This document shows, piece by piece, positions 1 to 13,051 of a stretch of 64,000 nt of DNA. Position 1 is the stretch's first letter; every line of letters begins with the position of its first letter. Under the pieces are notes generated by a model. The model did no database searches and was not told where the DNA came from. It worked only from the letters and a program-made list of their open reading frames with translations. The translations under genes and the position numbers were made by a program. The stretch comes from an uncultured Acidobacteriota bacterium (GTDB lineage Bacteria > Acidobacteriota > Thermoanaerobaculia > Multivoradales > UBA5704), in contig CAVYRF010000002.1 of the NCBI GenBank assembly GCA_963770895.1, positions 1,984,001 through 2,048,000 of the forward strand. The letters run 5' to 3'.

Positions 1-63
1 AACGATCGCCACTTCGAGCAGGCCGGATTCACCAACCTTCTGCCAGGTCCAGGCGCCTCGTAG
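1..63 (+). CDS. 3' end of a probable PIN-domain (VapC-like) toxin, truncated by the window edge
   Basis: Frame 1 reads NDRHFEQAGFTNLLPGPGAS*, matching the typical PIN C-terminal (T)xDxHFxQAGF motif. Confidence 0.6.
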   Translation, partial: NDRHFEQAGFTNLLPGPGAS

Positions 64-94: not shown

Positions 95-186
95 GGACTT
101 TTTTGTTTCCAATTCGCGGCTGCACACGGCGCGCTGCGAGCCGGTCACCAGCACCCCACTGGTAGAGATTCGGCCCTCCCCTCCCC
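95..186 (-). repeat. Conserved non-coding motif, copy 1 (cos/packaging-site-like)
   Basis: Blocks GGACTTTTT, CCAATTCGCGG, CCGGTCAC and TAGAGATTC plus a C-tract recur with identical spacing at 9282-9377. It lies just downstream of the DUF2280 gene. Confidence 0.7.
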
Positions 187-230
187 CAGGGCTCCGCGCT
201 TACTGCGATTCGGGCATTGTCTTCCCCTTG

Positions 231-668
231 TCAGCGGCCATTTTCGGGAAGGTAGATGACAATGGATGGGGGCAGCGGTGCGCCTCCCTTCCCGGATAGT
301 TCGCGCCGATTGGTGAGCAGGCCGCCGACTTCCTCGGCGGCCTGGCGCAGGTGGCGAGCGGCCAGAGCGTCGTTGCCTCGGCTCTTGGCGCGACGGTATA
401 GGGCCTGAAGCTCAGCAAGGCGGAAGGCTTGATGCGCGATGCCTTGCTGGGCGGTCTCTTGGATGTATGCGTCCCTGGTTGCGTCGAAGAGGACGCGCCA
501 CTTCTCGGCCAGGTCGGGGGAGTGATCAGGGTGGTAGCGCCATGCTTGCCGGCGGTCGATGGTGAGATTGAAGCGTTCCGCGACGGCTTCCACAACTTCC
601 GATGGCTCGCGGAAGCAGGCAAGTTGCTGCACGATAAACAGTTGCACTTCTTGTCGTAGCTTGGCCAT
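231..668 (-). CDS. DUF2280-family phage protein (possible small terminase-like)
   Basis: MAKLRQEVQLFIVQQLACFREPSEVVEAV...LAEKWRVLFDATR...IAHQAFRL...AAEEVGG...TNRRELSGKGGAPL is the DUF2280 pattern. Confidence 0.8.
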   Translation of the reverse strand: MAKLRQEVQLFIVQQLACFREPSEVVEAVAERFNLTIDRRQAWRYHPDHSPDLAEKWRVLFDATRDAYIQETAQQGIAHQAFRLAELQALYRRAKSRGNDALAARHLRQAAEEVGGLLTNRRELSGKGGAPLPPSIVIYLPENGR

Positions 669-683
669 GGTCTGGTTTCCGTC

Positions 684-1187
684 TCAGCTGGGTCGCGGTA
701 AGGCGGGCGACCTTGGGTGAGTGCTATTGGGCGAGGAGTCGGTCATGGTGCCGCGGAAGGTCTTCTTGAAAGCGTGGACCTGGCGCAGGTCGTCGGGGTT
801 GGTGAGGCCGAGCAGTGCGCGCAGCTCGCTGGCGCGATAGACGGGGCGCAGCTCGCCGGGGTCCACGTGGGCGTTGTCGCTGGCGAAGATGACGACCTCG
901 CCAAGGACACTGCTTCGCATTTCGACGACCAGGGCGGCGGTGGCGAAAACGTCCAGGGTCATGGCGCAGACCTCGTTCACCCGGAGGGGTGGCGCTGCTT
1001 CCGTGACGCCGGCCAGGGCCAGGGTGGGAGGAGACAGGAGGCGGAGGAGATTGGGCTTGTGCTTGCGCAGCTCCTCCAGCAGGTCTGGTGGGACGGCTTC
1101 GATCGGTCGAAAGCGAAGGCGGTTGCCGGAGGCCGACAGCTCGATTCCCCGGCGATCCAGCTCGGCAAGGATGCTCTCGGGACTCAT
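684..1187 (-). CDS. Hypothetical mobile-element protein with a TubC-N-like N-terminal domain
   Basis: Starts MSPESILAELDRRGIELSASGNRLRFRP...LLEELRKHKPNLLRLL. The ATG at 1187 is preferred over the longer ORF. Confidence 0.6.
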   Translation of the reverse strand: MSPESILAELDRRGIELSASGNRLRFRPIEAVPPDLLEELRKHKPNLLRLLSPPTLALAGVTEAAPPLRVNEVCAMTLDVFATAALVVEMRSSVLGEVVIFASDNAHVDPGELRPVYRASELRALLGLTNPDDLRQVHAFKKTFRGTMTDSSPNSTHPRSPALPRPS

Positions 1188-1460
1188 GGGTGTCAGACCT
1201 CGCCCCAGGCTGCCCCGTCGGCAGCAGGAGCTACGGCGGCGGAAACGACTGCTCCGCTCAAAGCCTGATTTCCCAGGCTTTCGGCAGCATCCCATTTCTG
1301 CCGCGCCCATTCTGCTTGGGTGGCGGGAATCCGCTCTTCGCAGAATGCAGATCCAGCAGGCGTTTCATGGGTGTCGCCATTTCCGCCGCCGTCCGCCGGC
1401 GGCTGGTGGTTGGGGAGACGCATTGAGGGGCCTATGCGGTGCCAGGCCACCGGAAGCCAG

Positions 1461-1489
1461 TTGACATGCCCTGTCCCGATAGTCACAAT
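1461..1489 (+). promoter_or_regulatory. Sigma70-type promoter of the toxin-antitoxin operon
   Basis: TTGACA-17 bp-CACAAT ends 10 bp before the ATG at 1500, implying a near-leaderless transcript. Confidence 0.6.
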
Positions 1490-1499
1490 TCTGGTCATC

Positions 1500-1823
1500 A
1501 TGGTGAGGCGGCGGCCCTATGCCCTGGTCTACGCTCCCGTGGTCAAGTCGCACCTGCGGGTGATCGAGCGACACCATTACTCGTTGATTCGCGCGAGCAT
1601 CGAGGAGCAACTGCGGTTCGAGCCAGGCATCGAAACCACGAACCGCAAGCCGTTGCAGCAGCCTGCCCTCATCGCGGCGCAATGGGAGCTGCGCTTCGGC
1701 CCCGACAATCGGTTCCGTGCCTTCTACGAGATCGACCACGAGAGCCGGAAAGTCTACATCCTGGCGCTCGGTGTCAAGGAGCGGAATCGTTTGCTCATCG
1801 GAGGAGAGGAGGTAGATCTTTGA
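1500..1823 (+). CDS. RelE/ParE-family toxin
   Basis: YALVYAPVVKSHL...WELRFGPDNRFRAFYEID...VYILALGVKERN; 107 aa; overlaps the downstream antitoxin. Confidence 0.8.
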   Translation: MVRRRPYALVYAPVVKSHLRVIERHHYSLIRASIEEQLRFEPGIETTNRKPLQQPALIAAQWELRFGPDNRFRAFYEIDHESRKVYILALGVKERNRLLIGGEEVDL

Positions 1824-2143
1824 AGATTGCATCGGTTGCAGAGGTCAAGGCTCAGTTCAGCGCCTACCTGAAGCAGAGCGAGCAGGGAGCGGTGATCGTC
1901 ACCCGCAACGGCAGGCCGGTAGCTGCGTTGCTGGCCATCCGGGACGACGAGGAGCTCGAAAACCTGGTCCTGGCGCACTCGCCTCGCTTGCGGTCGATCC
2001 TGGGTGCGGCACGGCAGCAGATCCGCGCCGGCGAAGGAGTCGATCACGGAGATCTTTGGCGCGAGATGGAGGCGGCGCCGCCCAAGGCGCGCCGCAAGAG
2101 CAAAGCCAGAAGGGTGCCTTCCGGCAAGCAGGGTAGTGCGTAG
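1820..2143 (+). CDS. Phd/YefM-family antitoxin
   Basis: The TTG start overlaps the toxin stop (TTGA). KIASVAEVKAQFSAYL...VIVTRNGRPVAALL is the Phd signature. Confidence 0.85.
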   Translation: MKIASVAEVKAQFSAYLKQSEQGAVIVTRNGRPVAALLAIRDDEELENLVLAHSPRLRSILGAARQQIRAGEGVDHGDLWREMEAAPPKARRKSKARRVPSGKQGSA

Positions 2144-2185
2144 CAGGTCAGTGAAACCTGGACGCTCACTCATCTTCATTCCTCG

Positions 2186-2330
2186 ATGCGAGAGCGGGCT
2201 TGGCCATCTGCTAGCTGCTGCGGCCGCCCACACCCGCCCGCCCGGTATGCGCACCTGCCTGACGATCCCCGGCGAGCCGTTGCCGAGCAGATCGCCGGCC
2301 ACCTCGCTTCCCTGAGCGCCAAACCGAAAG
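2186..2330 (+). pseudogene. Remnant of a tyrosine-integrase C-terminus
   Basis: ARYAHLPDDPRRAVAEQIAGHLA resembles the catalytic-Tyr helix (TxRYAHL); the upstream box II is degenerate or frameshifted. Confidence 0.5.
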
Positions 2331-2415
2331 GGGGGCCAGCTGGCAAGCTCTGTGTGGCGAAGGGATGCTGGCAGGCGCCGACCTAAAACCGTGACAGGTG
2401 CCGGGAGGGTATCTT

Positions 2416-3162
2416 CTAGGCGAAGTCGTCGCTCTGCCGCCAGCGGGTGTCCTCGATCGTAGCGCCGTCATCGAGATCGCTGATGGCGAGGTAGCCGCCG
2501 CGGCCGTGAGGCTTCATGCAGGCACGGGCTGCCCTCAACCGATCGCGGATCTTCTTCTCGTCCCAGAGACCGGCGTCAGCCAGCACCTTGGGCGTGCCCC
2601 CCTTGGGGATCGCGTAGAGAAGGAAGAGGTACTGGCCCCAGAAGTCCCGCTGCTGTCGCGGTGTCCCGACCACCTTCTTGTTCCGCCGCAGCACCACGTC
2701 AATCTGATACCGCCGGAGCTTGGCGCGGGCGATGGTCCACTGTGCGCGGAGATCCTTGGTGACGTCGAAGCTCACCAGATAGGTGCTGTCGGTGACGTCC
2801 GGGGGGGCCGAGCCTTCCCGGATCTCGGCGGCGGTCGTAACGGTCCCGAAGGACCGTACGAAGCGCAGGTCGTCCGGCCACATCTCGTTCGGGTCGTGGT
2901 AGCCGGCCACCAGGCCCCAGCGCTCCAACGCTGTCGGATCGGGGATGGTCTCGGGCTTGGGGGGCGCCCGCAGGACGTTCGGGTCGGGCTCGGGCGGTGG
3001 CGGCCGGCGCTCCTGCCATTCGGCCCGATAGGCCGGATTCCTGCGGAGGAACTGCCAGGCCCAGGCTTGGAGGGTCAGCCAGGCGGGGATCTCCTCCGCC
3101 TTGAACCTCTCGAACTCGGCCACCCAATCGATGGCTGGAGGCGCTTCGCCGGTCGTCGCCAA
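2416..3162 (-). CDS. DUF6499-like (WAWxFLRRN) transcriptional-regulator-domain protein
   Basis: AWAWQFLRRNPAYRAEW...ERWGL motif, typical of regulators of integrative elements. Confidence 0.65.
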   Translation of the reverse strand: MATTGEAPPAIDWVAEFERFKAEEIPAWLTLQAWAWQFLRRNPAYRAEWQERRPPPPEPDPNVLRAPPKPETIPDPTALERWGLVAGYHDPNEMWPDDLRFVRSFGTVTTAAEIREGSAPPDVTDSTYLVSFDVTKDLRAQWTIARAKLRRYQIDVVLRRNKKVVGTPRQQRDFWGQYLFLLYAIPKGGTPKVLADAGLWDEKKIRDRLRAARACMKPHGRGGYLAISDLDDGATIEDTRWRQSDDFA

Positions 3163-3213
3163 CTGATGACTGCCTGATGCCTGTGGTTTTCCGGGGACGG
3201 AGTCGATTTGCTC

Positions 3214-3226
3214 TAAGTTGTTGATT
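3214..3226 (-). promoter_or_regulatory. IHF-consensus site next to att
   Basis: The reverse complement AATCAACAACTTA matches WATCAANNNNTTR, 4 bp from the att copy. Confidence 0.5.
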
Positions 3227-3230
3227 TGAT

Positions 3231-3279
3231 TGGTGCACCCAGGAGGATTTGAACCACCAACCTACAGATCCGTAGTCTG
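3231..3279 (-). repeat. att site: duplicated 3' part of tRNA-Arg
   Basis: 49-bp direct repeat of 12975-13023 with one mismatch. Confidence 0.95.
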
Positions 3280-3396
3280 CCACGAACTGCATTAGCGGCG
3301 CTACGCTCTGTTTTCACTTCAGTGGTAAGTGATTCACTTGGCACGCTTTAGTGGTACCATGAGGATGCATGGCGAGTCAAGGTACGGCCTGCTCTA

Positions 3397-3415
3397 TTCG
3401 CCCCGGATTCGCCCC
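3397..3415 (+). repeat. Putative integrase arm-type sites (left)
   Basis: TTCGCCCC twice at an 11-bp period, followed by GGCAGA; the same arrangement occurs at 12888-12906. Confidence 0.7.
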
Positions 3416-3435
3416 AGGGCAGAGGGAGATGCGAA

Positions 3436-4707
3436 ATGCCACGACGGGCGGCTGCGATCCTTACGGACATCGCCATTCGTAGGCTGCGGCCGACGGCGCA
3501 GCGCTATGAGATCCGGGACGCCTCCAGGCCGGGCTTCGGGGTCCGGGTGGAGGCGGACGGTCGCAAGGTGTTCTTCCAGCGTTATGGAACGCGCGGCGAA
3601 AGGCGCCTCACGCTGGGCGCCTACTCCGGGGCATTCGGACTGGCACAGGCGAGAGCCGCCGCGGACAAGGCGCGCGCCGATCTCGCGGCCGGCCTCGATC
3701 CCATCGAAATCAAGCGGCAGCGTCGCCAACTGGAGCACGATGAAAGGCAGGCGCAGAAGGCGGCGCGTGATGGCCGGCCGGCTCCGGGTACGTTTGCTGA
3801 GCTAGCGGAACGCTACCTGCGAGACGCAAAGCGCCGCCGCCGGGAGCGCAGCGTGCAGGAGGACGAACGCAAGCTGCGGGTGGAGGTGCTTCCAGGATGG
3901 GGCGCGAGGCGCGTCCGGGAGCTTCGGCGTGCCGATGTTCTGCGCCTGGTCGAGGACTCGCGAGAGCGCGGGGGCGTGTGCTCCAATCGGACCCTGGCGC
4001 TGGTCCGCGCGGTCTTTCAGTACGCGGTGGACCGCGAGGAACTGGATGCCAACCCCGCACTGCGCATCCCGCGGCGCTATCTTTTTGTAGAGAAACCCCG
4101 CGAGCGCGTCCTGAGCCGCGCCGAGCTGCGCTCTCTGCTTGCCGTTGTAGACGACCTTGGCCCCATCGTCGGCGGGGCCTTCCGCATGATTCTTGTGACC
4201 GCCCAACGTCCCGGCGAAGTACTCCGCATGCGATGGGAGGAGATAGGCCGAGACGAAGGCGGTCCCTTCTGGGAGCTTTCAGATGAAGTTGCAAAGGCGG
4301 GCCGCGGTCATCGCGTCCCGCTCTCTCGCCAGGCAATCGCCGTGCTCGAACCGCTCCGGCGAATCACAGACTCGACCCCATGGGTTTTCGCGTCACCCTC
4401 GCCGCGGACGGAAGGGCCGGTGCGCTGGCTTTCCCATGCGGCGAACCGGCTGAGGCAGAAATCCGGCGTCGATCACTTCACCCCTCACGATCTCCGGCGC
4501 ACGGCGGCCACCTGCATGGGCGAGCGAGGGGTGCGGCCTGACGTGATTGAGCGCGTCCTGAACCACGTGCAAGCCAAGATCGCGCGCACCTACAACCGAG
4601 CCACCTACGATGCAGAGAAGCGCCAAGCTCTTGCCATTCTCGGCGACCTCATCGATTCGCTTGCGTCGGGCGAAGAAACGCCGTCGAACGTGGTCTGGCT
4701 TGCATGA
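3436..4707 (+). CDS. Tyrosine recombinase/integrase with an N-terminal arm-binding domain (P4-like/DUF4102 type)
   Basis: N-terminal LTDIAIRRL...GFGVRV...RRLTLGAY; catalytic TAQRPGEV, HDLRRT and LNH...YN motifs. Confidence 0.95.
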   Translation: MPRRAAAILTDIAIRRLRPTAQRYEIRDASRPGFGVRVEADGRKVFFQRYGTRGERRLTLGAYSGAFGLAQARAAADKARADLAAGLDPIEIKRQRRQLEHDERQAQKAARDGRPAPGTFAELAERYLRDAKRRRRERSVQEDERKLRVEVLPGWGARRVRELRRADVLRLVEDSRERGGVCSNRTLALVRAVFQYAVDREELDANPALRIPRRYLFVEKPRERVLSRAELRSLLAVVDDLGPIVGGAFRMILVTAQRPGEVLRMRWEEIGRDEGGPFWELSDEVAKAGRGHRVPLSRQAIAVLEPLRRITDSTPWVFASPSPRTEGPVRWLSHAANRLRQKSGVDHFTPHDLRRTAATCMGERGVRPDVIERVLNHVQAKIARTYNRATYDAEKRQALAILGDLIDSLASGEETPSNVVWLA

Positions 4708-4763
4708 GCCATGCGCCAGGACCAGTTTCGGGGAGCTAATTCTGCTGGCGCCGGAGGGATAAA

Positions 4764-5441
4764 ATGGGCATCAACGAGATCAGGGCTAGCACAGAGAGAT
4801 CCTTCGACCGCTGGCTAGCGGCAATAAGCAAGTTCGACTACTTCTATATGACCGTTGCGGCCGGCCTCTTGGCGTTCATCGCCAAGGACTACCATCCCCG
4901 TAGACTTGACTCTTGGCTGGACTTCTTCGATCCGGTCTCGATGCTACTTCTCATCGCCGCTTTTACGGTAGGCGCGCTCCGCGTGCAATTGGCCACGCAC
5001 CTGCTGTACCTCGAAGTGGAACAAGGGAAATGTCTATTCAGGATTGAGAAGTACCGGCCGGGCCTCACTAGCCCGGTTCCTGGGGAGGACAATGCCACCG
5101 GCCAAGCAATTGGGAAGGTCGAAGCACAAGAGACAGTGGATGCGGAAAGGGCAAGGCTCAGGGCCATCACGGAGGCGACGGCGAAGGTGACTATGCGCGC
5201 CGCAAAATTTTACCAAGCCCGAGTCTGGCTGCTCGCGGCTGGAATAGGCTTGCTCTTGGTTGGCCGAATACTGACTCCCTACTTCCCTGCATTCGCGGGT
5301 ACCGTTTCCATTCAACAATCCCCAGCGGCGACGACTGGCCCTGCAGGCTCGGCCGTCGGCAGGTCCTCGCCTCAGCTCTTGCTGGAGCAGAAGCTGCCTG
5401 CGCCTGCGGCTGAACCTACACAGGTCCGCCACCCCAGGTGA
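4764..5441 (+). CDS. Hypothetical membrane protein (about 3 TM helices)
   Basis: 225-aa ORF with RBS GGAGGG and hydrophobic segments after KFDYF, at MLLLIAAFTVGAL and at VWLLAAGIGLLLVG. Confidence 0.65.
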   Translation: MGINEIRASTERSFDRWLAAISKFDYFYMTVAAGLLAFIAKDYHPRRLDSWLDFFDPVSMLLLIAAFTVGALRVQLATHLLYLEVEQGKCLFRIEKYRPGLTSPVPGEDNATGQAIGKVEAQETVDAERARLRAITEATAKVTMRAAKFYQARVWLLAAGIGLLLVGRILTPYFPAFAGTVSIQQSPAATTGPAGSAVGRSSPQLLLEQKLPAPAAEPTQVRHPR

Positions 5442-5626
5442 CAGAATTGATTCCCGCCGCCCGCCCCGACGGCTTGGTGGCGGGCAGTGCCGCGCTCTTC
5501 GCCAGCCGGCTGGGCGGCTCCCCGGCCGCTGGACGGCGATCGCGGCACCTGAAGCCGCCGCTCCTGAGCCAGCCGCGCTGCCACGGCTGGCTGCGGCACC
5601 CGGTCATTCGCGGTAGACTCCGCGAT

Positions 5627-6685
5627 ATGGAGCGGAGCATGACGGCGATCGATCTCTTCGCCGGCGCCGGGGGGGGCACGGAGGGTCTGAAGGCGGCCGG
5701 CTTTCGGGTAGTCGCTGCCGTCGAAAACGACCGGACTGCGTGCAGGACTTACCGGCTCAACCATCCTGGCGTCGTCCTGATTGAACGCGACGTTCGGCGA
5801 GTCACCGGATCGGATCTTCTGCGCGCGGCTGGGTTGCGGAAGGGTGAGACGTGCCTGCTCCAGGCCTGCCCGCCGTGTCAGACGTGGTCGTCGCTTGGCT
5901 CTGCATCCGCTGAGGACCCGCGGAACCAGCTCGTGTCCGTCGTGTCCGAGCTAGTTCGGAAGATCCGCCCCCGTGCCTTCGTGATCGAGAACGTTCCCGG
6001 TCTGCGATTCGATGCGCGGCTCGCTGCTCTCGTTGCGGAGGCTGGACGCCAGCGGTTCCGAGTGCGGGCCTATGTCGTCGACGCGCAGGACGTTGGGGTG
6101 CCGCAACGCCGGCGCCGCCTGATTGTCATCGGCATCCGCAGTCGGCGGCAGGTGGAACTGCCCGAGTCGCTTTTGGACCTGCTGCCAGCCGAATTCGACT
6201 GCACCGCTCGGACAGTCCGCGATGCCATCGGCCACCTGCCAACGCCTGGCGTTGGCGACGATCAACTGCACCGCGGCAGAACCTTGACCGACCTCGTTAC
6301 GCAGCGCGTGGCCGCTCTTCCGCTGGCCGGGCGAAGGACCGACCTTCCAGAGCACCTTCAGCTTGCTTGCCACCAGAAGCTTAAGGGCCGGGTCGCAACC
6401 GCGGCGTATGGACGTATGGCGGCAACCGAAGTTGCTCCCACCCTGACGACTAGGTGCACCACTCCGGCGTGCGGCTCGTACGTGCACCCCTCCGAGAACC
6501 GGGGCATCACCCTGCGCGAGGCCGCGTTGCTCCAGACTTTTCCCGCGAGTTACCTTTTCAGCGGTGGCTACGGTGCGATCGAGCGGCAGATTGGCAACGC
6601 CATTCCCGTCCGCCTCGCCGAGGCTGCGGCCATGGCTGTGCGGACGCTTCTCGCGCCAGCGGGCGAAAGGCGACTCGGGACGTGA
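5627..6685 (+). CDS. dcm: DNA (cytosine-5)-methyltransferase
   Basis: Motifs DLFAGAGG (I), CPPCQ (IV), ENVPG (VI), PQRRRR (VIII), RGITLREAALLQTFP (IX) and QIGNAIP (X). Confidence 0.95.
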   Translation: MERSMTAIDLFAGAGGGTEGLKAAGFRVVAAVENDRTACRTYRLNHPGVVLIERDVRRVTGSDLLRAAGLRKGETCLLQACPPCQTWSSLGSASAEDPRNQLVSVVSELVRKIRPRAFVIENVPGLRFDARLAALVAEAGRQRFRVRAYVVDAQDVGVPQRRRRLIVIGIRSRRQVELPESLLDLLPAEFDCTARTVRDAIGHLPTPGVGDDQLHRGRTLTDLVTQRVAALPLAGRRTDLPEHLQLACHQKLKGRVATAAYGRMAATEVAPTLTTRCTTPACGSYVHPSENRGITLREAALLQTFPASYLFSGGYGAIERQIGNAIPVRLAEAAAMAVRTLLAPAGERRLGT

Positions 6686-8724
6686 CGCCTAACTCTACGA
6701 ACGGGCCGTCCGCCACCACGACGGTGCCCGAGGCGCCGCTCGTCCTCAAATTCGGCGGCTCCCTAGTCGAGCAGCTCGGGGCGCAGCTATACCCCAGCGT
6801 GACCGCCACAGTGGCAGAGCTCCTATCCAATGCCTGGGACGCGGAGGCCAAGAACGTCTGGATCACAATGCCGTTTGGCGTGTGGCATGCCGACGACCGC
6901 ATCGTGGTGACGGACGACGGACATGGCATGACGCGATACGAGGCGCAGCACTCGTACCTCGTCGTGGGCCACAAGCGGCGCGGGGAAGGCCGAGGCGCGC
7001 TGTCTGCGAGTGGTCTGCGCCGCGTTCACGGACGCAAGGGCATCGGCAAGCTGGCGGCATTCGGCACGGCTGGCATCCTCGAATGCTCGACGCTAAAGAA
7101 CGGCCAGCACGTCGCCTTCAGGTTGAACTACGACGAAATCCGCAAGCTCGATCCATCGGCAGACTACACGGTAGAAGACGCGGTGGATCTTTCGGCACCG
7201 ACGAATCCAGAGAGCGGTTGCCCGCTCGAGCACGGCACCCGCATCAGCCTCTCGCGGCTGCTGCAGAAGAGGGCGCTCGGCGAGGGCCAGTTTTTCCGGT
7301 CCATGGCTCGGCGGTTCGCGATCTCGGCCGACGAGATGGCCGTGCGCATCAACGGTACGCCGCTTCAGCGGTTCGACATGAGCGTCCAATTCAGGTTCCC
7401 GCCGGACAGCATCCCCGAAGGCGTGGCGATCGCCAACGGCTGGGCGGTCGAGTCTATCGCGCCCGGCCACGAGGTGCGCTGGTGGATCGGTTTCACCGAG
7501 AAGCCCTTGGAAGACGAGACGCTTCAGGGCATCTCCGTCCTCGCCAATCAGAAGATGGCCCAGCGGCCGTTTCTATTCGACCGCTCGCGCGGCACTGAGG
7601 GACAGCTCGGACAGGAGTACCTCGTCGGCGAGGTGCAGGCCGATTGGATCGACGCCGGCACTGACGTCGAGGACGACCTCATCCAATCCAACCGAGACCA
7701 GCTCCAGATCGAAGACGACCGCCTCACGGTTTTCGTCGAGTGGGGACGCAGGCGCTTGGCGTGGGCACTGAAGGAGCGCAACCGGTTGCGGCAGGACGCC
7801 GCCGTGCGGGGCTTCGAGGCAAGCCAAGAGCTGCTCCAGCTGTTCGACCCCTACACGAGAACAGAGCGGGCACAACTTCTGCGGCTCGCGGTCAACGCCT
7901 CAAAGCTGCCGGAGATGACCGGCGACTCCCTCCTAGAGCTCATGCAGTCGGTCGTAGACGCGAGATCGGACGCCGCTGTGCGCCAACTGATCGAAGAGAT
8001 CGAAGCATCCGACGAAGCGGTGCAGCCCCGCATGTGGGGACTGGTCCGCCAGTTCGGCCTGATCGATGCCCGGCGTACCTTCAGCATCATCCAGGCTCGG
8101 CTGAAGACGATCAGCAAGCTGAAGGAAGCCCTTGCCGCTGGCGCCAAGGAGGTGCCCGACCTACATGACATCGTCAAGAAGGATCCTTGGCTCCTCGACC
8201 CTCGCTGGCACCTCCTCGACGACGAGGTCGACCTGACGAAGTTGGGCATCGACTTCCAGCCGGCGACCGACGAGACCGGCCACCGGCTCGACTTCATGTT
8301 CGCGCTCATGCCCAAATCGCCCGCCCCACTCGACGAGATCATCGTTGTGGAGATCAAGCGCGGATCCGATCTGCAGGGGAAAAAGCGCGTCGCAACCGAG
8401 GAGGAGGTCAACAAGTTCCACTCGTACGTCCTTGCGGCCAGGGAGCACGAGCAACGCAACGGCTCGCAAGCAAAGGTGCGGGGCCTCATGATCACCCAGG
8501 GCTACACGGCAAACGGCAACCGCGTCAAGCAGAGCCTGGAGGAGAACCCGACGATTGAGCTTCGCTTCAGGACGTGGGACCGCGTCATCGCCGAAACCGA
8601 GCGCATGCACCTCGGATGGCTGGAGGTTTCCCGGGCAAGGAGCCGAGCCGAGGAGCCGGAGCCTGAGTTGGTCGACGAGGATGCCGTGGTGGAAGCACCG
8701 TCTCCTGACCATCCTCAGAGGTGA
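6682..8724 (+). CDS. GHKL (HSP90/MORC-like) ATPase fused to a C-terminal PD-(D/E)xK-like nuclease
   Basis: ELLSNAWDA, DDGHGM, GRKGIGKLA and HGTRI motifs; C-terminal RLDF...VVEIKRG; the GTG start overlaps the dcm stop (GTGA). Confidence 0.85.
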   Translation: MTPNSTNGPSATTTVPEAPLVLKFGGSLVEQLGAQLYPSVTATVAELLSNAWDAEAKNVWITMPFGVWHADDRIVVTDDGHGMTRYEAQHSYLVVGHKRRGEGRGALSASGLRRVHGRKGIGKLAAFGTAGILECSTLKNGQHVAFRLNYDEIRKLDPSADYTVEDAVDLSAPTNPESGCPLEHGTRISLSRLLQKRALGEGQFFRSMARRFAISADEMAVRINGTPLQRFDMSVQFRFPPDSIPEGVAIANGWAVESIAPGHEVRWWIGFTEKPLEDETLQGISVLANQKMAQRPFLFDRSRGTEGQLGQEYLVGEVQADWIDAGTDVEDDLIQSNRDQLQIEDDRLTVFVEWGRRRLAWALKERNRLRQDAAVRGFEASQELLQLFDPYTRTERAQLLRLAVNASKLPEMTGDSLLELMQSVVDARSDAAVRQLIEEIEASDEAVQPRMWGLVRQFGLIDARRTFSIIQARLKTISKLKEALAAGAKEVPDLHDIVKKDPWLLDPRWHLLDDEVDLTKLGIDFQPATDETGHRLDFMFALMPKSPAPLDEIIVVEIKRGSDLQGKKRVATEEEVNKFHSYVLAAREHEQRNGSQAKVRGLMITQGYTANGNRVKQSLEENPTIELRFRTWDRVIAETERMHLGWLEVSRARSRAEEPEPELVDEDAVVEAPSPDHPQR

Positions 8725-9233
8725 CGATGCAAGAGCCGTGCGGCACACTCGCCCCAGATCCCGAGCTGTCCCACAAGACGCGGAAGGTGCGTCCCCCATC
8801 AGCCCGCGACCGAGCGCGGCTGGTTGCTCAGCGGCGGCACGAGACGGCGCCCGAGATGGCCGTTCGTCGTGAGATGCACCGGCTCGGGCTTCGCTATCGC
8901 ACGCACGTTGCCGTTCTCGATGGGACGCGCAGGACCGTCGATATCGCGTTTACCAGGGTGCGCGTGGCCGTGGACGTTCGCGGCTGCTGGTGGCACGGCT
9001 GCCCCGTCCACGGATCGTTGCCGCGAGCGAACACCGAGTGGTGGGCGGCTAAGTTCGCTGCCGTACGGAGGCGCGACGAGGACACCGAGGTACGGCTGAG
9101 GCAAGCCGGATGGCATCTCGTCGTCGTCTGGGAACACGAGGACCCCGCCATCGCCGCACTGCGCATCGACGCCGCCGTCCGGGGCGGGGGCCTCGCGCGC
9201 CTCCTCCCTACATCCAGTCTCGACCTAGTTTAG
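8721..9233 (+). CDS. vsr: Very-short-patch repair endonuclease
   Basis: ETAPEMAVRREMHRLGLRYR...DIAF...VDVRGCWWHGCP...GWHLVVVWEHE; overlaps the upstream stop. Confidence 0.92.
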   Translation: MTMQEPCGTLAPDPELSHKTRKVRPPSARDRARLVAQRRHETAPEMAVRREMHRLGLRYRTHVAVLDGTRRTVDIAFTRVRVAVDVRGCWWHGCPVHGSLPRANTEWWAAKFAAVRRRDEDTEVRLRQAGWHLVVVWEHEDPAIAALRIDAAVRGGGLARLLPTSSLDLV

Positions 9234-9281
9234 CCGTAGTGCGAGGATCTCCTGCGCGGAACCCCCGTGTGCAGCTCCCGA

Positions 9282-9377
9282 GGACTTTTTGTTTTCCAAT
9301 TCGCGGGCGCACCCACGCTGCCGCGGTCCGGTCACTGGCTTAGTGGTGCTAGAGATTCAGACCCCCCTACTCCCCCC
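9282..9377 (-). repeat. Conserved non-coding motif, copy 2 (cos/packaging-site-like)
   Basis: Ungapped match of conserved blocks to 95-186 at offsets 0, 14, 46 and 68. Confidence 0.7.
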
Positions 9378-9577
9378 GACAAGCGTCAGATGCTCGCCAC
9401 GCTCGCCTAGCGAAGGGTGGAAACGGCTCCCGGACCTACTAGCCGCTAGCCTGCCGTGGTGGTCGTCATGCAGGGATCGCAGATGGTGAGGCAAGACACC
9501 GAACAGGCCTCAGTTGGGCGAGCTCCTGGCGCTTCGCGCAGCACCTGGGCGGTGAGCGTGGCTAGCGTCTCGCGGTT

Positions 9578-10189
9578 TGTTGCCGGCTGAGCAGACCCGC
9601 TGCTATTCGGTGAAGAACGCGTGTCACCGCCGCTGCTTAAATACCGCTGCTGGAGGGCGCCCTCGGCGTCGGCTGGTATTGAACCAGCGGTGGAGGGGTC
9701 GAAAGCGTAGGAACTCTGTCCGAACTGTTCCGCAGACTGGGCAGACTGGCGGCCGCGGTTCGGTATCGGGCGAGAGGAGGCCGGCAGGCTGGGGCGTATT
9801 GCGACACTGCTCCGTCACGACCGGTCGGCGCTCCGATTGGCGGTACCGGGCTTGGCGCTCTGCATGAAGCAGCCGTCCGCGTGGCGTAGCCTGGTGGCGC
9901 CTGTTGGATGCTCGCTGCTTCTCCCTGCGTGCGGCTCGCGCACACACCTTGCCGCAGTAGATGTTGCCTCGGTCGCACCCCGAGCAGATCGCGACCAATG
10001 CGCGACACCTGAGACAGCAGTACAAACGCTGAGCCTTCATGGTAGAGCCAGTCTACCGCCAGCCGCCGGCCCGCCGGTCCCCCTTGTCCACCCCCCCGGC
10101 GGGGATGATGCTGAGGGAACTTCACCACCTCCGATGGCTGAGAACTGCGTTCTTCACCGGATAGCAGCGGGTCTGCGCAGCCGCCAACA
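9578..10189. mobile_element. 612-bp non-autonomous transposable element (TGT...ACA ends)
   Basis: 43-bp TIRs (9578-9620 and 10147-10189, 3 mismatches), CGGTT target duplication (9573-9577 and 10190-10194), no transposase. Confidence 0.92.
9624..10040 (-). CDS. Cys-rich, basic zinc-finger-like protein (resembles IS21-associated accessory ORFs)
   Basis: CLRC...ICSGCDRGNIYCGKVC...RRHQATPRGRLLHAERQARYR...CPVC; it is the only convincing ORF between the TIRs. Confidence 0.7.
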   Translation of the reverse strand: MKAQRLYCCLRCRALVAICSGCDRGNIYCGKVCARAARREKQRASNRRHQATPRGRLLHAERQARYRQSERRPVVTEQCRNTPQPAGLLSPDTEPRPPVCPVCGTVRTEFLRFRPLHRWFNTSRRRGRPPAAVFKQRR

Positions 10190-11132
10190 CGGTTGAATGC
10201 CAGTTTGGGGGACCGCTTCTGCATTTGGTTTCTCCTTTCGCCGAAAAGCCCTGATCAGACGAGATGACCGCGCGGCTTGAGGCGCCAATCGGCCCCACCA
10301 CCGCGCGGCAGAATTCTCGCATGAAAGAGGAGACGTGGGCGTCAAGGGTTCCGCGCCTGTCGCTAAGACCTGCACAGGACCACCACCAAAGTTCACAGAA
10401 TCGATTCCCTGAGGTAGGCAATCCGCGACGCCATGCTCATTTATCTACAGTGATTTACGCCTTGTTAGGTGCGATGGCTTGGGTGCGAGGCTGTGGTGGT
10501 TGGTAGAGACTCCGACCACCACAGCCAGCAACGCCAAATCCCCCGATCAACCTGGGCACGACACTGCCGACGATAAGGTATGCCCCGGCGCGCCCAGGCA
10601 AGCCCCGGCGGAAGAGAAGGGAAGGATGGCGGCGGGGCGGTTGGACGAACGCTGGAATGGTTGGCCCGATTCGTCGGATTACGGGCGGGCGTGCTGGCAG
10701 GTGACTGTCGCGGCGGGCACACCCCCTCCCATGCCTGGGAGGTGAGGTGTTAGGCGGGCGGCTGGGAAACCGCAGGGAAGGGCCTTTCAGGGCAGCCCTC
10801 GCCTTTCCGGGTTAGTCTTGTTTGCCGGGTCTAGCCCGGCGCCCAGGCATTCGACCGGGACGTGGGGGTCGAGGTGCTTGCGCACTCTCGGACGAGATCA
10901 AATACTCGTCGCCGTTGCCCGGATTTCCCCGTGCCTACCACTTTGCCGGCAGCGATCATTGCCAGCCCTGTTGAGCCTTTTCGGTCTTTCACCTTGGACA
11001 AGGCTTTTCCTATCGTAACCATCGCAACGCGGCCCGGCCCACTCTCCACAGTCGGCCGGGCCTATAGTCTTCAGCGGACCTGAAATTTCCGTCCAACAAA
11101 GCGTCAGTCGTGCAGCGGGGCCTTGCCGGTCC

Positions 11133-11342
11133 TCAGCCTGCGGCGGTCGTTGGAATCGCTCGCGGGCCGCGGGGAAGACTGGCGAGGAACTTGTCCAGGT
11201 CTTCGCGGAACCAGCCGGATGCATGCTCGCCCAGAATGACTCGCGGAGGGAGCTGTCCCGCTCGTTCGAGGCGATATAGAGACGCCCTGCTGAGGCCGAT
11301 GTAGACCGCTGCGGCGGCAGGGCGCAAAACTCTCTGTAGCAT
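11133..11342 (-). CDS. alpA: AlpA-family regulator/excisionase
   Basis: VLRPAAAAVYIGLSRASLYRLERAGQLPPRVILGEHASGW; RBS AAGGAGA. Confidence 0.88.
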   Translation of the reverse strand: MLQRVLRPAAAAVYIGLSRASLYRLERAGQLPPRVILGEHASGWFREDLDKFLASLPRGPRAIPTTAAG

Positions 11343-11479
11343 CAAGATTCTCCTTGCTTGGCAGGCAGTGCGCCATGCGCTGCCTGGGACGCTCGGGGTA
11401 TCAATCGCACGCGTAAATTGAAACATGTCGGCTTGCCCCTTTGCAAGTTTGCTCATAATTCAATCGATGTCCTTCACAA

Positions 11480-11495
11480 CACGTGCATGCACGTG
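11480..11495. promoter_or_regulatory. Perfect 16-bp palindrome upstream of alpA (candidate operator)
   Basis: CACGTGCATGCACGTG in a lower-GC intergenic stretch. Confidence 0.4.
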
Positions 11496-11713
11496 CAGGA
11501 ACGCAATGTGCCAGGGCGGCTCATGGAGGATTAGCGGGTCCGCCGCCGGCAGCTCGCTCGATCTCAAAGTGAAGCATGGGAGGCTCGCCTTGTGCCACAT
11601 CCAATTGCAGCCTGCCCTGTGCAAAACTGGTGTAAGCCGGCCTTCGCCAAGTTGCTGGGTCTGGAAGGCCGCGGAGAGCAAATCCACGTTCACCGTATCG
11701 AACTGGCCTTGGA

Positions 11714-12241
11714 TCATTCGGCCTCCAGTGCCGGCGCGGCGGCGGATGCAGCGGCGGAAGCGCCGATCCACGGGGCGCGCCAGCTGCCGGTCTGTAGGTC
11801 CATGAAGGCCAGGCAGCAGTGAGCCACAGCCTTGCCGCACTCCTGAGCCAGCCGCAGGATGTCCTTGTGGGATCTCGCCGGCGGCGTCCGGATGTCCAGC
11901 GCCCGAGTGTCCAGCGGCAGGGTGTCCGGCTCCCTGGTGTCCGGCGGCAGGGTGCCGTCTTCCGGCGGCCCTTCCTGGCCGGCTGGCCTTTGCTGGGCTC
12001 GGTAGAGATCCGTCAGGGTCAAACCCATGGCGGCCACGATGCGCCCGAGGGTGCGCGCACAGGGCTGGCGGATGCCCTGCTCGTATCGGGCCAGGGCCGT
12101 CGAGGTGCACCCGACCTGCGCGGCAAGCTGCCGCAGGGTCATACCCGTATCTCGGCGAAGTCTCAGGATCGCCAGCCCAACGAGCTGTGCTTCGTCGGCG
12201 TTCCGCTTCCGATGCCTCCCCTTTGCGGGTTGGGCCTTCAT
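11714..12241 (-). CDS. XRE-family HTH regulator
   Basis: ILRLRRDTGMTLRQLAAQVGCTSTALARYEQGIRQP; contains 15-bp internal repeats at about 11891-11959. Confidence 0.85.
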   Translation of the reverse strand: MKAQPAKGRHRKRNADEAQLVGLAILRLRRDTGMTLRQLAAQVGCTSTALARYEQGIRQPCARTLGRIVAAMGLTLTDLYRAQQRPAGQEGPPEDGTLPPDTREPDTLPLDTRALDIRTPPARSHKDILRLAQECGKAVAHCCLAFMDLQTGSWRAPWIGASAAASAAAPALEAE

Positions 12242-12597
12242 GACAGCTCTCCTTCGATTGAACCGGCCAGGTCGCCTACCTTTGCGGCGAGCTTGCCGGC
12301 GAAGTGGGCCAGGTCGTCGTCGGCCGGTTCCAGGCAAGAATCCTGGGCGGACTTGCGCACGGAGCGCAGGAAGCCTTCGACGAAGCGCAGCTCGGCAGCC
12401 GCGGCCCGCAGCTCGGCGCGGGTGATCGAGTCTTTGTCGGGGAAGTCGGTCGTCTCGACGGCCATGTCGTAGATGAGCCTCCCGACCTGACGGAGGGCTT
12501 CGCGGGACACGGGGTCGTCAATGCAGATCAGCGTCGTTTCCCGGAACGAATCGGCGGGGTTCCAGGGGTGAGGGGTAGACTGCGGGTGGTCGGGCAT
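12238..12597 (-). CDS. Hypothetical helical protein, coupled to the XRE gene
   Basis: 119 aa, RBS GGAGG, ATGA overlap with the XRE gene. Confidence 0.7.
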   Translation of the reverse strand: MPDHPQSTPHPWNPADSFRETTLICIDDPVSREALRQVGRLIYDMAVETTDFPDKDSITRAELRAAAAELRFVEGFLRSVRKSAQDSCLEPADDDLAHFAGKLAAKVGDLAGSIEGELS

Positions 12598-12887
12598 GGG
12601 ATGCCTCCGTGCTCGGCAAGTCCCCGGCGGGAGCTCGTTACTTCCGCCGGGGGCGTCTGACTGAAACGGGGGCGGCGCGTGCCGCCCCTCTGTGCTCTGG
12701 GTTCAGGTGGGAACGTGGCCTGCCGCACCAACGGGCCGGATCGTCTTGCTGCCAGCGCTGGCACCGGTAGCGCGCCGCGCGGCTGGACCGGCTGGGCGAC
12801 CACAGAATGTATACCTGCCGGCGGCTTGGAGCGGGTGGGAATGACGGCGTGCCTAATGCCAGGGGCGGCCGTCAACCGTCGTTCGTT

Positions 12888-12906
12888 TTCGCCCCTCATT
12901 CGCCCC
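12888..12906 (+). repeat. Putative integrase arm-type sites (right)
   Basis: TTCGCCCC twice at an 11-bp period, followed by TGGCAGA. Confidence 0.7.
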
Positions 12907-12974
12907 TGGCAGACACGGTTGCCCGAGCCTTCGGAGGCGCTCCAGCGCAAATCGCTTAGATCGTTGGGGTTAGG

Positions 12975-13051
12975 TGGTGCACCCAGGAGGATTTGAACCC
13001 CCAACCTACAGATCCGTAGTCTGTCGCTCTATCCAGTTGAGCTATGGGTGC
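12975..13051 (-). tRNA. tRNA-Arg (anticodon ACG)
   Basis: GCACCCATAGCTCAACTGGATAGAGCGACAGACTACGGATCTGTAGGTTGGGGGTTCAAATCCTCCTGGGTGCACCA folds as a cloverleaf with an encoded CCA. Confidence 0.97.

Follow-up and report, generated by a model that had tools for sequence, protein, structure and literature searches.

Phage satellites that carry the cohesive-end packaging site (cos) of a helper phage are already known, P4, SaPIbov4/5 and EcCICFT073 among them (PMC6092414, PMC5052747), and the kind of element described here is therefore not itself new. For phage HK97, it is reported that the cos ends are 10-nucleotide (nt) 3' overhangs, that the small terminase (TerS) requires positions +15..+29, where it binds and reads a C:G pair at position 21 and the adjacent A-tract by DNA shape, and that cutting is stimulated by the HNH protein gp74 (PMC11331095). 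Here we describe two adjacent islands, A and B, of an uncultured Acidobacteriota bacterium (GCA_963770895.1), located in and to the left of a 64,000-nt stretch of contig CAVYRF010000002.1 (positions 1,984,001 to 2,048,000), called the window throughout. Each island contains one copy of a short repeat (copy 1, 95..186, in island A; copy 2, 9282..9377, in island B) which, read on the minus strand, is very probably a cos site of the HK97 type.

The closest counterparts of the two sites are those of HK97 and of HNH-dependent HK97-like phages, which likewise have a G-tract and an AAATCT-type element, ~17 nt, (G)AC|CG, a 10-nt end and, ~15-30 nt past the cut, a C:G cluster with an A/T-run. The 3' overhang of 10 nt and the TerS position of +15..+29 published for HK97 (PMC11331095) agree with the cut geometry predicted for the islands. 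They differ from HK97 in having no HNH/terS flanks, in having GAATCTCTA where HK97 has AAATCTTCA, and in a TerS-side block that is lineage-specific. As regards satellites, the islands resemble the cos-type Staphylococcus aureus pathogenicity islands (SaPIs) SaPIbov4 and SaPIbov5, which are integrative, lack terminase genes and carry the cos of HNH-dependent helpers; a terS-related leftover lies beside the cos of these SaPIs, and SaPIbov4 has two putative cos sites (PMC5052747, PMC6092414). In contrast to them, the present islands belong to another host lineage, no ccm-like, Stl-type or replication module was recognised in them, and the DUF2280 gene of island A is an intact gene of another terminase type rather than a 3' remnant. 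With EcCICFT073 and other Gram-negative phage-inducible chromosomal islands (PICIs) of the cos type they share an integrase, alpA, a helper-type cos and accessory genes; EcCICFT073-type PICIs are packed as multimers in full-size capsids and have a cosB unlike that of the helper (PMC6092414), but their cos is lambda-type, they have a primase-replicase module, and no rpp-like gene was identified in the islands. [quoted passage not shown] P4-like satellites have a helper cos, an integrase at a tRNA gene and a defence hotspot (PMC6092414, PMC10803314), but the cos of P4 is P2-type, and no homologues of its alpha primase-helicase, sid, psu or delta were found in the islands. The present case stands apart in having an HK97-type cos on tRNA-integrated islands of a high-GC soil bacterium, without a recognisable replication or capsid-remodelling module, two tandem elements with one variant of the TerS site and, in island A, a cos coupled to the orphan small terminase of a different phage type. 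A limited literature search found no description of phage satellites in Acidobacteriota.

An earlier note on this DNA had claimed that four exact blocks lie at fixed offsets in both copies, and the coordinates confirm this, with offsets of 0, 14, 46 and 68 for GGACTTTTT (95-103 and 9282-9290), CCAATTCGCGG (109-119 and 9296-9306), CCGGTCAC (141-148 and 9328-9335) and TAGAGATTC (163-171 and 9350-9358), followed by C-rich tails reaching 186 and 9377. In the ungapped alignment 63 of 92 positions are identical, with the identities in runs of 14, 9, 9 and 8; four runs of at least 8 were attained with p = 0.004 (100,000 shuffles of the identity string). The TerS-side block is identical at 23 of 25 positions. 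The copies lie in the chromosome as direct repeats at a distance of 9,187 bp. By exact pattern, blastn-short and nhmmer, the genome (8,164,432 bases, 70.7% GC) holds these two only; with copy 1 as query, copy 2 was the sole non-noise match in the genome (E 2.7e-6), and when the family's 91 other genomes were searched by BLAST with copy 1, nothing but GC-rich noise resulted. The motif is thus not one that recurs at many chromosomal sites, an outcome that had been named beforehand as telling against a packaging signal. The statements made on the neighbourhood also held. The flanking genes are unrelated, as the right flanks share one 29-aa tblastx match (E 0.004) and the left flanks scattered short tblastx segments only; copy 1 adjoins a DUF2280 gene (stop 45 nt away; family match E 4.2e-27); and defence-type cargo ends beside both copies, the PIN gene at 63 and the vsr gene at 9233.

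Exact two-block scans of viral contigs gave one chance locus and 0 loci, apart from the pair CCGGTCAC/TAGAGATTC. The arrangement CCGGTCAC-N12-16-TAGAGATTC was present at five viral loci, one of which (L144, record G490) also matched the tail at 14 of 16 positions. In G490 (54 kb, 43% GC) this match sits in a 158-nt gap between an HNH endonuclease gene and a small-terminase gene, with large terminase, portal and major head genes further along, and the same upstream layout was found in relatives of the G490 terS with 57-99% identity (L152-L157). In a blastn search against 50,697 phage records, neither the G490 intergenic region nor copy 1 had a match. The pattern GGGGNGGGNNRAATCTCTA occurred at no fewer than 116 viral loci of 21-73% GC (L187-L302), and the reversed pattern at 11. 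For the site and neighbour counts that follow, all of which hold among the matches listed, 109 of the 116 had enough flank, 70 remained after removal of near-duplicates and 67 of these were aligned, L216, L234 and L246 being dropped for a context like that of chance matches. The G of ACCG was invariant in 67/67 aligned sites and the A was conserved in at least 90%, with ACCG, which is absent from the search pattern, lying ~17-19 nt after AATCTCTA. At most loci a same-strand open reading frame (ORF) ends 4-20 nt before the G-tract and the next starts ~70-95 nt after AATCTCTA. Among the 42 of 60 upstream ORFs tested, those from loci with full flanks, 31 were HNH, 8 had no family, and Abi_alpha, GemA and AAA_33 were found once each. 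Downstream, 47 of 57 ORFs were tested, giving Terminase_4 (27), Terminase_7 (1), TerL (2), one capsid, one KilA-N and one ribonucleotide-reductase protein, and 14 without a family. A layout of G-tract, AATCTCTA, ~17 nt, AC|CG, 10-nt end, and C:G cluster with A/T run is thus common to phage contigs of 21-73% GC. No mention of the upstream G-tract/AATCTCTA element was found in the portions of the HK97 packaging literature available to us; it might be usable as a general marker for cos ends of the HK97-like phage type.

Sequenced ends fall at the same place. Four contigs (L211, L300, L222 and L207) stop 18-20 nt after AATCTCTA, directly past the AC of ACCG. Two of them, of 42,325 and 43,168 nt, are 100% and 96% complete, and both begin shortly before a terS-like ORF; the start of the 42,325-nt record (GTCTTTATTTTT...) corresponds to the sequence ten nucleotides past GAC in a close continuous site (L286). 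Contigs ending at AC| would be expected from end-repaired virion DNA if the 3' overhang had been removed. The GenBank record of HK97, which was not selected by the pattern, has at its 3' end a G-tract, ATC, AAATCTTCA, 17 nt, GAC and 10 nt, and at its start 18 nt followed by CCCGA and a T-run, with terS from position 50 and HNH as the last gene (L303, L304). Its numbering agrees with the positions given in the published excerpts (T16, C:G 21, A:T 24-29; PMC11331095). The site layout therefore has HNH and terS neighbours and virion-type ends, so the possibility raised in the earlier note, that the motif might never lie near terminase genes or virion ends, was not borne out.

On the minus strand of copy 1 (95..186), the G-tract and GAATCTCTA occupy 163..186, a cosQ-like position ~17 nt upstream of the predicted cut that the phage-site alignment supports and that holds the same element at the right end of HK97. 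They are followed by 17 nt (162-146, ending GTG), AC|CGG (145-141; GTGAC|CGG at 148-141), the 10-nt CGGCTCGCAG (143-134) and, from +15, CCGCGAATTGGAAAC with an A-run (119-95). The cut block GTGAC|CGG with the predicted cohesive end (134..148, minus strand) is assigned from the invariant ACCG, the contig ends, the HK97 end and the published HK97 cut (PMC11331095), and the CCGCG cluster with its A-rich run, +15 to ~+39 (95..119, minus strand), is by position a putative TerS site (cosB-like). Copy 2 (9282..9377, minus strand) has the same geometry, with CGGACCGCGG as the 10-nt segment and the TerS-side block at 9306-9282. Nicks are predicted between 144/143 and 134/133 in copy 1 and between 9331/9330 and 9321/9320 in copy 2. 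Upstream of the predicted cut, both copies, like HK97, have a G-rich tract and then an AAATCT(C/T)(T/C)A-type element, and in both ACCG lies 17 nt past AATCTCTA; the position and composition of the putative TerS site (CCGCG and an A-rich run, +15 onward) fit HK97, whereas its sequence differs. An nhmmer profile of the 70 phage sites ranked copy 1 first in the genome (E 1.2e-6, 30.8 bits; profile positions 5-97) and copy 2 second in 8.16 Mb (E 2.1e-3, 20.4 bits; profile positions 23-101), with the third match at E 4.2. The suggestion, made by eye, that the minus strand resembles an HK97-like cos is thus supported by the same block order and spacing between HNH and terS, at the HK97 ends and at the four contig ends. 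The cos reading also explains the AT-rich stretch, odd in a genome of 70.7% GC, which would be the A-tract required by TerS, and the least conserved parts of the copies, namely the cohesive end and the spacer that precedes the cut, both of which are variable among phages too. The island sites are not placed between HNH and terS, as copy 1 is flanked by DUF2280 and PIN and copy 2 by a hypothetical gene and vsr; this is expected of a satellite-borne cos, yet it is a difference from the phage site.

With a sequence-only model, R1, to which copy 1 matches at E 2.6e-7, the family's 91 other genomes gave sites in 3 (E <= 0.01, strict filters), and a sample of 150 further genomes from the class gave none (E <= 0.001, strict filters). 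Five related sites have ACCGG and CCGC(G)A plus an A/T-rich block, spaced as in the islands, and three of the five have an exact GTGACCGG; further on in the TerS-side block, the relatives differ from the islands. In G005, of the same family, the site lies in a complete prophage with the order HNH, cos, Terminase_4, TerL, portal, S78 protease and HK97-fold capsid. In G084, of the same genus, an HNH gene adjoins the site on a 1.8-kb contig. A second congener, G080, has three near-identical sites without canonical HNH-terS flanks (L311:5820-5906, minus; L311:7547-7634, plus; L312:1700-1785, minus), one beside a TerL-nuclease fragment and a DDE transposase and the other two inverted, 1.7 kb apart. 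The contig with the inverted pair also has a possibly frameshifted homologue of the island B ORF 9624-10040. The basis for the satellite "family" proposed earlier is thus this genome together with the orphan cos sites of one congener.

No HNH, Terminase_4, large terminase, capsid or portal genes were found in the islands, and the genome gave no match to TerL_ATPase, Terminase_6N, Terminase_4 or Phage_capsid (PF03354, PF03237, PF05119, PF05065). A tblastx comparison of the whole 26-kb island region with the G005 prophage gave nothing above 40 bits. The islands cannot package themselves. Island A does contain the orphan DUF2280 gene (231..668, minus strand; 145 aa; PF10045, 4.2e-27), the single DUF2280 gene in the genome. 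A DUF2280 protein directly before the large terminase appears in a published prophage table (PMC7760358). In 27 of 30 viral DUF2280 loci the stop of the gene overlaps an ORF of 460-470 aa by 14 nt, and 9 of 10 such downstream ORFs tested are Terminase_6N/6C large terminases. Since none of the 47 tested ORFs downstream of the listed phage cos sites matched DUF2280, the family does not form part of the HK97-type cos system. Island A thus carries an orphan but intact gene of a family that occupies the small-terminase position in a second packaging system, the Terminase_6 type, which we take to be headful-type. A search of the PDB sequences with DUF2280 found nothing.

Since the islands carry an HK97-type cos but none of the packaging genes that belong to it, they are probably phage satellites packed in helper capsids, and we consider the odds to lie on the side of this account even with present-day helper-dependent packaging included. 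Among the features of satellites, island B has an integrase and flanking attachment (att) repeats, both islands lack capsid, portal and large-terminase genes and have cos as a helper-capturing determinant, and island A has DUF2280 in addition. Excision and regulation would be served in island B by AlpA and a helix-turn-helix (HTH) protein, whereas an HTH homologue and a Trans_reg_dom protein are all that island A has of such a module. In the proposed sequence of events, an HK97-like helper phage would infect the cell or be induced; its terminase (TerS, TerL and the HNH endonuclease) would recognise the island cos, with TerS binding the CCGCG and A-run block; and the DNA would be cut at AC|CG and 10 nt downstream with the help of HNH and passed into helper capsids. 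Packaging by a helper is itself inferred. The ~9.7-kb units would most likely be packed as multimers rather than monomers, since the genomes seen for this phage type, at 40-43 kb, are about four times as long as one unit of 9.74 kb; EcCICFT073 and PICMI would be parallels. As the same TerS-side variant is present in both copies, both islands would depend on the same helper.

Several results weigh against these readings and have to be set beside them. As to the cos assignment, the search pattern was derived from copy 1 and the phage site L152, so part of the profile score of copy 1 is circular; neither copy was found genome-wide when the profile was confined to what lies downstream of AATCTCTA; and outside the pattern columns, the copy-identical positions were not enriched in phage-conserved columns (12/19 vs 38/60, p 0.62). 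The last two results indicate that the TerS-side block is lineage-specific, not universal. Under strict filters R1 detected only copy 1 in the genome of the islands. The TerS of HK97 had no Terminase_4 match and no BLAST similarity to the TerS of the family prophage, so that the TerS site is assigned by position and composition only. As to the helper, one with the TerS-side variant of the islands was not found among viral contigs (0 loci), metagenome contigs (0 true of 13 loci) or species-representative genomes (0 true of 92 loci, most of these being one conserved coding gene of Alphaproteobacteria); the four-block pattern, with <=3 mismatches, matched nothing in a sample of 400 further genomes of the phylum; and no resident helper prophage was found in the genome. 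The idea of a packaging signal retained to hijack one helper phage, with which the earlier note concluded, is supported within limits: the cos identity and the TerS-side variant shared at 23/25 positions fit one helper, but no helper with this variant was found. As to the islands, no integrase occurs within 16 kb to the left of island A and no left att copy was detected, and Pfam and PHROGs gave no replication module (primase, replicase, origin) in either island.

Conserved blocks with variable spacers can mark RNA helices, and some hairpins can be drawn, but the fold z-scores are ordinary (plus strand, -0.55 and +0.11; minus strand, +1.12 and +1.61) and neither copy has an Rfam match at the gathering threshold, with chance-level matches only at E up to 10; a structured RNA was rejected on these grounds. 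A repetitive extragenic palindromic (REP) or miniature inverted-repeat transposable element (MITE) was rejected because the genome has two copies only, and a repeat of either of these kinds, RNA or REP/MITE-like, which the earlier note had itself considered, is hardly credible. An att site was likewise rejected, the true att repeats being tRNA-Arg halves. Another cis-acting site, such as an oriT, a replication origin or a recombinase site with a chance likeness to cos, would suit the AT-rich stretch, as many DNA-opening sites are of this composition, and the downstream part taken alone is statistically weak; but the copies have three separate elements in phage order and spacing, the same clade-specific blocks occur in a canonical HNH-cos-terS prophage of the same family, and no relaxase or replication gene is nearby, which makes a coincidence of this sort highly improbable.

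With the repeats taken as cos sites, what remains is their present role. They may be relics of HK97-like prophages that decayed or recombined at a tRNA hotspot and now have no function. Island A, which looks incomplete, without an integrase or a left att, the cos of the congener G080 beside a large-terminase nuclease fragment and a transposase, as in prophage debris, and the failure to find a helper all agree with decay. However, tblastx against the family prophage detected no trace of HNH, TerS or TerL beside either copy, every functional block is exact in both copies while the spacers have diverged (p 0.004), and island B, as an integrative element, is intact and has no phage structural genes among its other genes; we regard the relic explanation as unlikely. 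Functional cos sites could also serve otherwise, either as decoys that divert the terminase of an invading phage (defence by interference) or as packaging starts for adjacent chromosomal DNA. This would suit the defence cargo beside both sites (PIN and a type II restriction-modification-like set) and the two direct repeats 9,187 bp apart, and known satellites do interfere with their helpers (PMC5052747). Nothing here, however, separates such a role from satellite packaging, which interference normally accompanies, and the integrase, AlpA and att set of island B points to an excising element; a role of this kind in place of satellite packaging is distinctly improbable. Within the satellite account itself, a bolder version may be put forward tentatively and with more doubt than belief: the islands would be minimal "cos-only" satellites, spread as concatemers of about four units in ~40-kb HK97-like capsids, island A, by combining its HK97-type cos with the orphan small terminase of a headful-type phage, could exploit two unrelated packaging machines, and the deeply conserved cos layout would be a general probe for such orphan cos sites in bacterial genomes of any kind. 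Having no primase and no capsid-remodelling gene, such satellites would be undetectable by marker-gene searches.

A low-GC stretch (0.59-0.69) extends from ~13 kb before the window up to a tRNA-Arg gene. Island B (3280-12974) is an intact tRNA-Arg element of ~9.7 kb, bounded by att repeats of 49 nt, 98% identical and 9,744 nt apart (3231-3279 and 12975-13023). Its integration target is the tRNA-Arg(ACG) gene (12975..13051, minus strand), and the displaced 3' half of that tRNA (3231..3279, minus strand) serves as the distal att of island B and at the same time bounds island A on the right; no third tRNA-Arg fragment was found. The element encodes a P4-type tyrosine integrase (3436..4707, plus strand; Arm-DNA-bind_3, Phage_int_M and Phage_integrase) and plus-strand cargo (5438..9233) comprising an m5C methyltransferase (5438-6685), an HATPase-type protein like a type II restriction enzyme (6454-8724) and Vsr (8721-9233). 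This cargo resembles a type II restriction-modification unit; the HATPase-type protein matches PADLOC REase_II models, and its ORF and that of the methyltransferase, taken from their first start codons, overlap by 232 nt. Adjoining cos copy 2 is a conserved hypothetical gene (9624..10040, minus strand), whose sole homologue found lies beside the orphan cos sites of G080 (L311, 78% over 63 aa); in a tblastn search of 11 island proteins, DUF2280 excluded, against all fetched viral loci, it was the only one to match, and the match was to a G080 contig. A minus-strand run of small ORFs without assigned family lies between cos copy 2 and the AlpA-type excisionase/regulator gene (11133..11456, minus strand), beyond which is an HTH (Cro/CI-type) repressor-like gene (11714..12337, minus strand). 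Within the region of this HTH gene (11884-11943) there is a repeat of 15-nt period (GTGTCC(A/G)G x4), which might reflect coding periodicity or else be a group of binding sites.

Island A, to the left of 3231, contains genes for a Trans_reg_dom protein, a Phd-like antitoxin, a 208-aa protein with a TubC_N-like stretch and DUF2280, then cos copy 1, PIN, a HigB/HTH pair and an inverted homologue of the island B HTH gene. The 3' end of the PIN-domain (VapC-like) toxin gene is at 1..63 (plus strand; L003:15593-16063, PF01850, 8.1e-13), its start being 407 nt before the window. Toxin-antitoxin genes of the island thus include a HigB-like toxin with an HTH antitoxin (L003:11940-12521, window -4060..-3479), the PIN toxin (1-63) and a Phd/YefM-like antitoxin (1823-2143). 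The HTH region of island B (11608-12498) and the inverted homologue in island A (L003:10742-11587, window -5258..-4413) share 70-88% identity in tblastx segments, and the inverted copy may mark a rearranged end of island A. Four soil-metagenome runs of one study contain island DNA as low-depth contigs, which, being metagenome contigs, cannot show molecule ends; neither an empty site nor a circle junction was present among the listed public-run contigs, and no RNA run was listed with this DNA. Two of the metagenome contigs part from the window exactly at the outer edge of the copy 1 G-tract, one being unlike it before 178 and the other after 186; elsewhere in the population, the junction between the cos and DUF2280 modules may differ. 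In another contig, 4320-4573, inside the island B integrase gene, is replaced by 32 other letters; the integrase of such a variant would be disrupted.

It is mostly by their proteins that satellites are detected, whereas here the packaging signal itself flags two small islands that no protein marker would, and the cos profile separates phage-linked from orphan cos sites. Predictions are provided at the level of single bases, for the nick positions, the 10-nt end and the TerS-side block. The host is a high-GC soil bacterium of a family with few prophages of the HK97-like type, and if the islands are mobilised, their restriction-modification and toxin-antitoxin cargo would move between strains by way of HK97-like phages.

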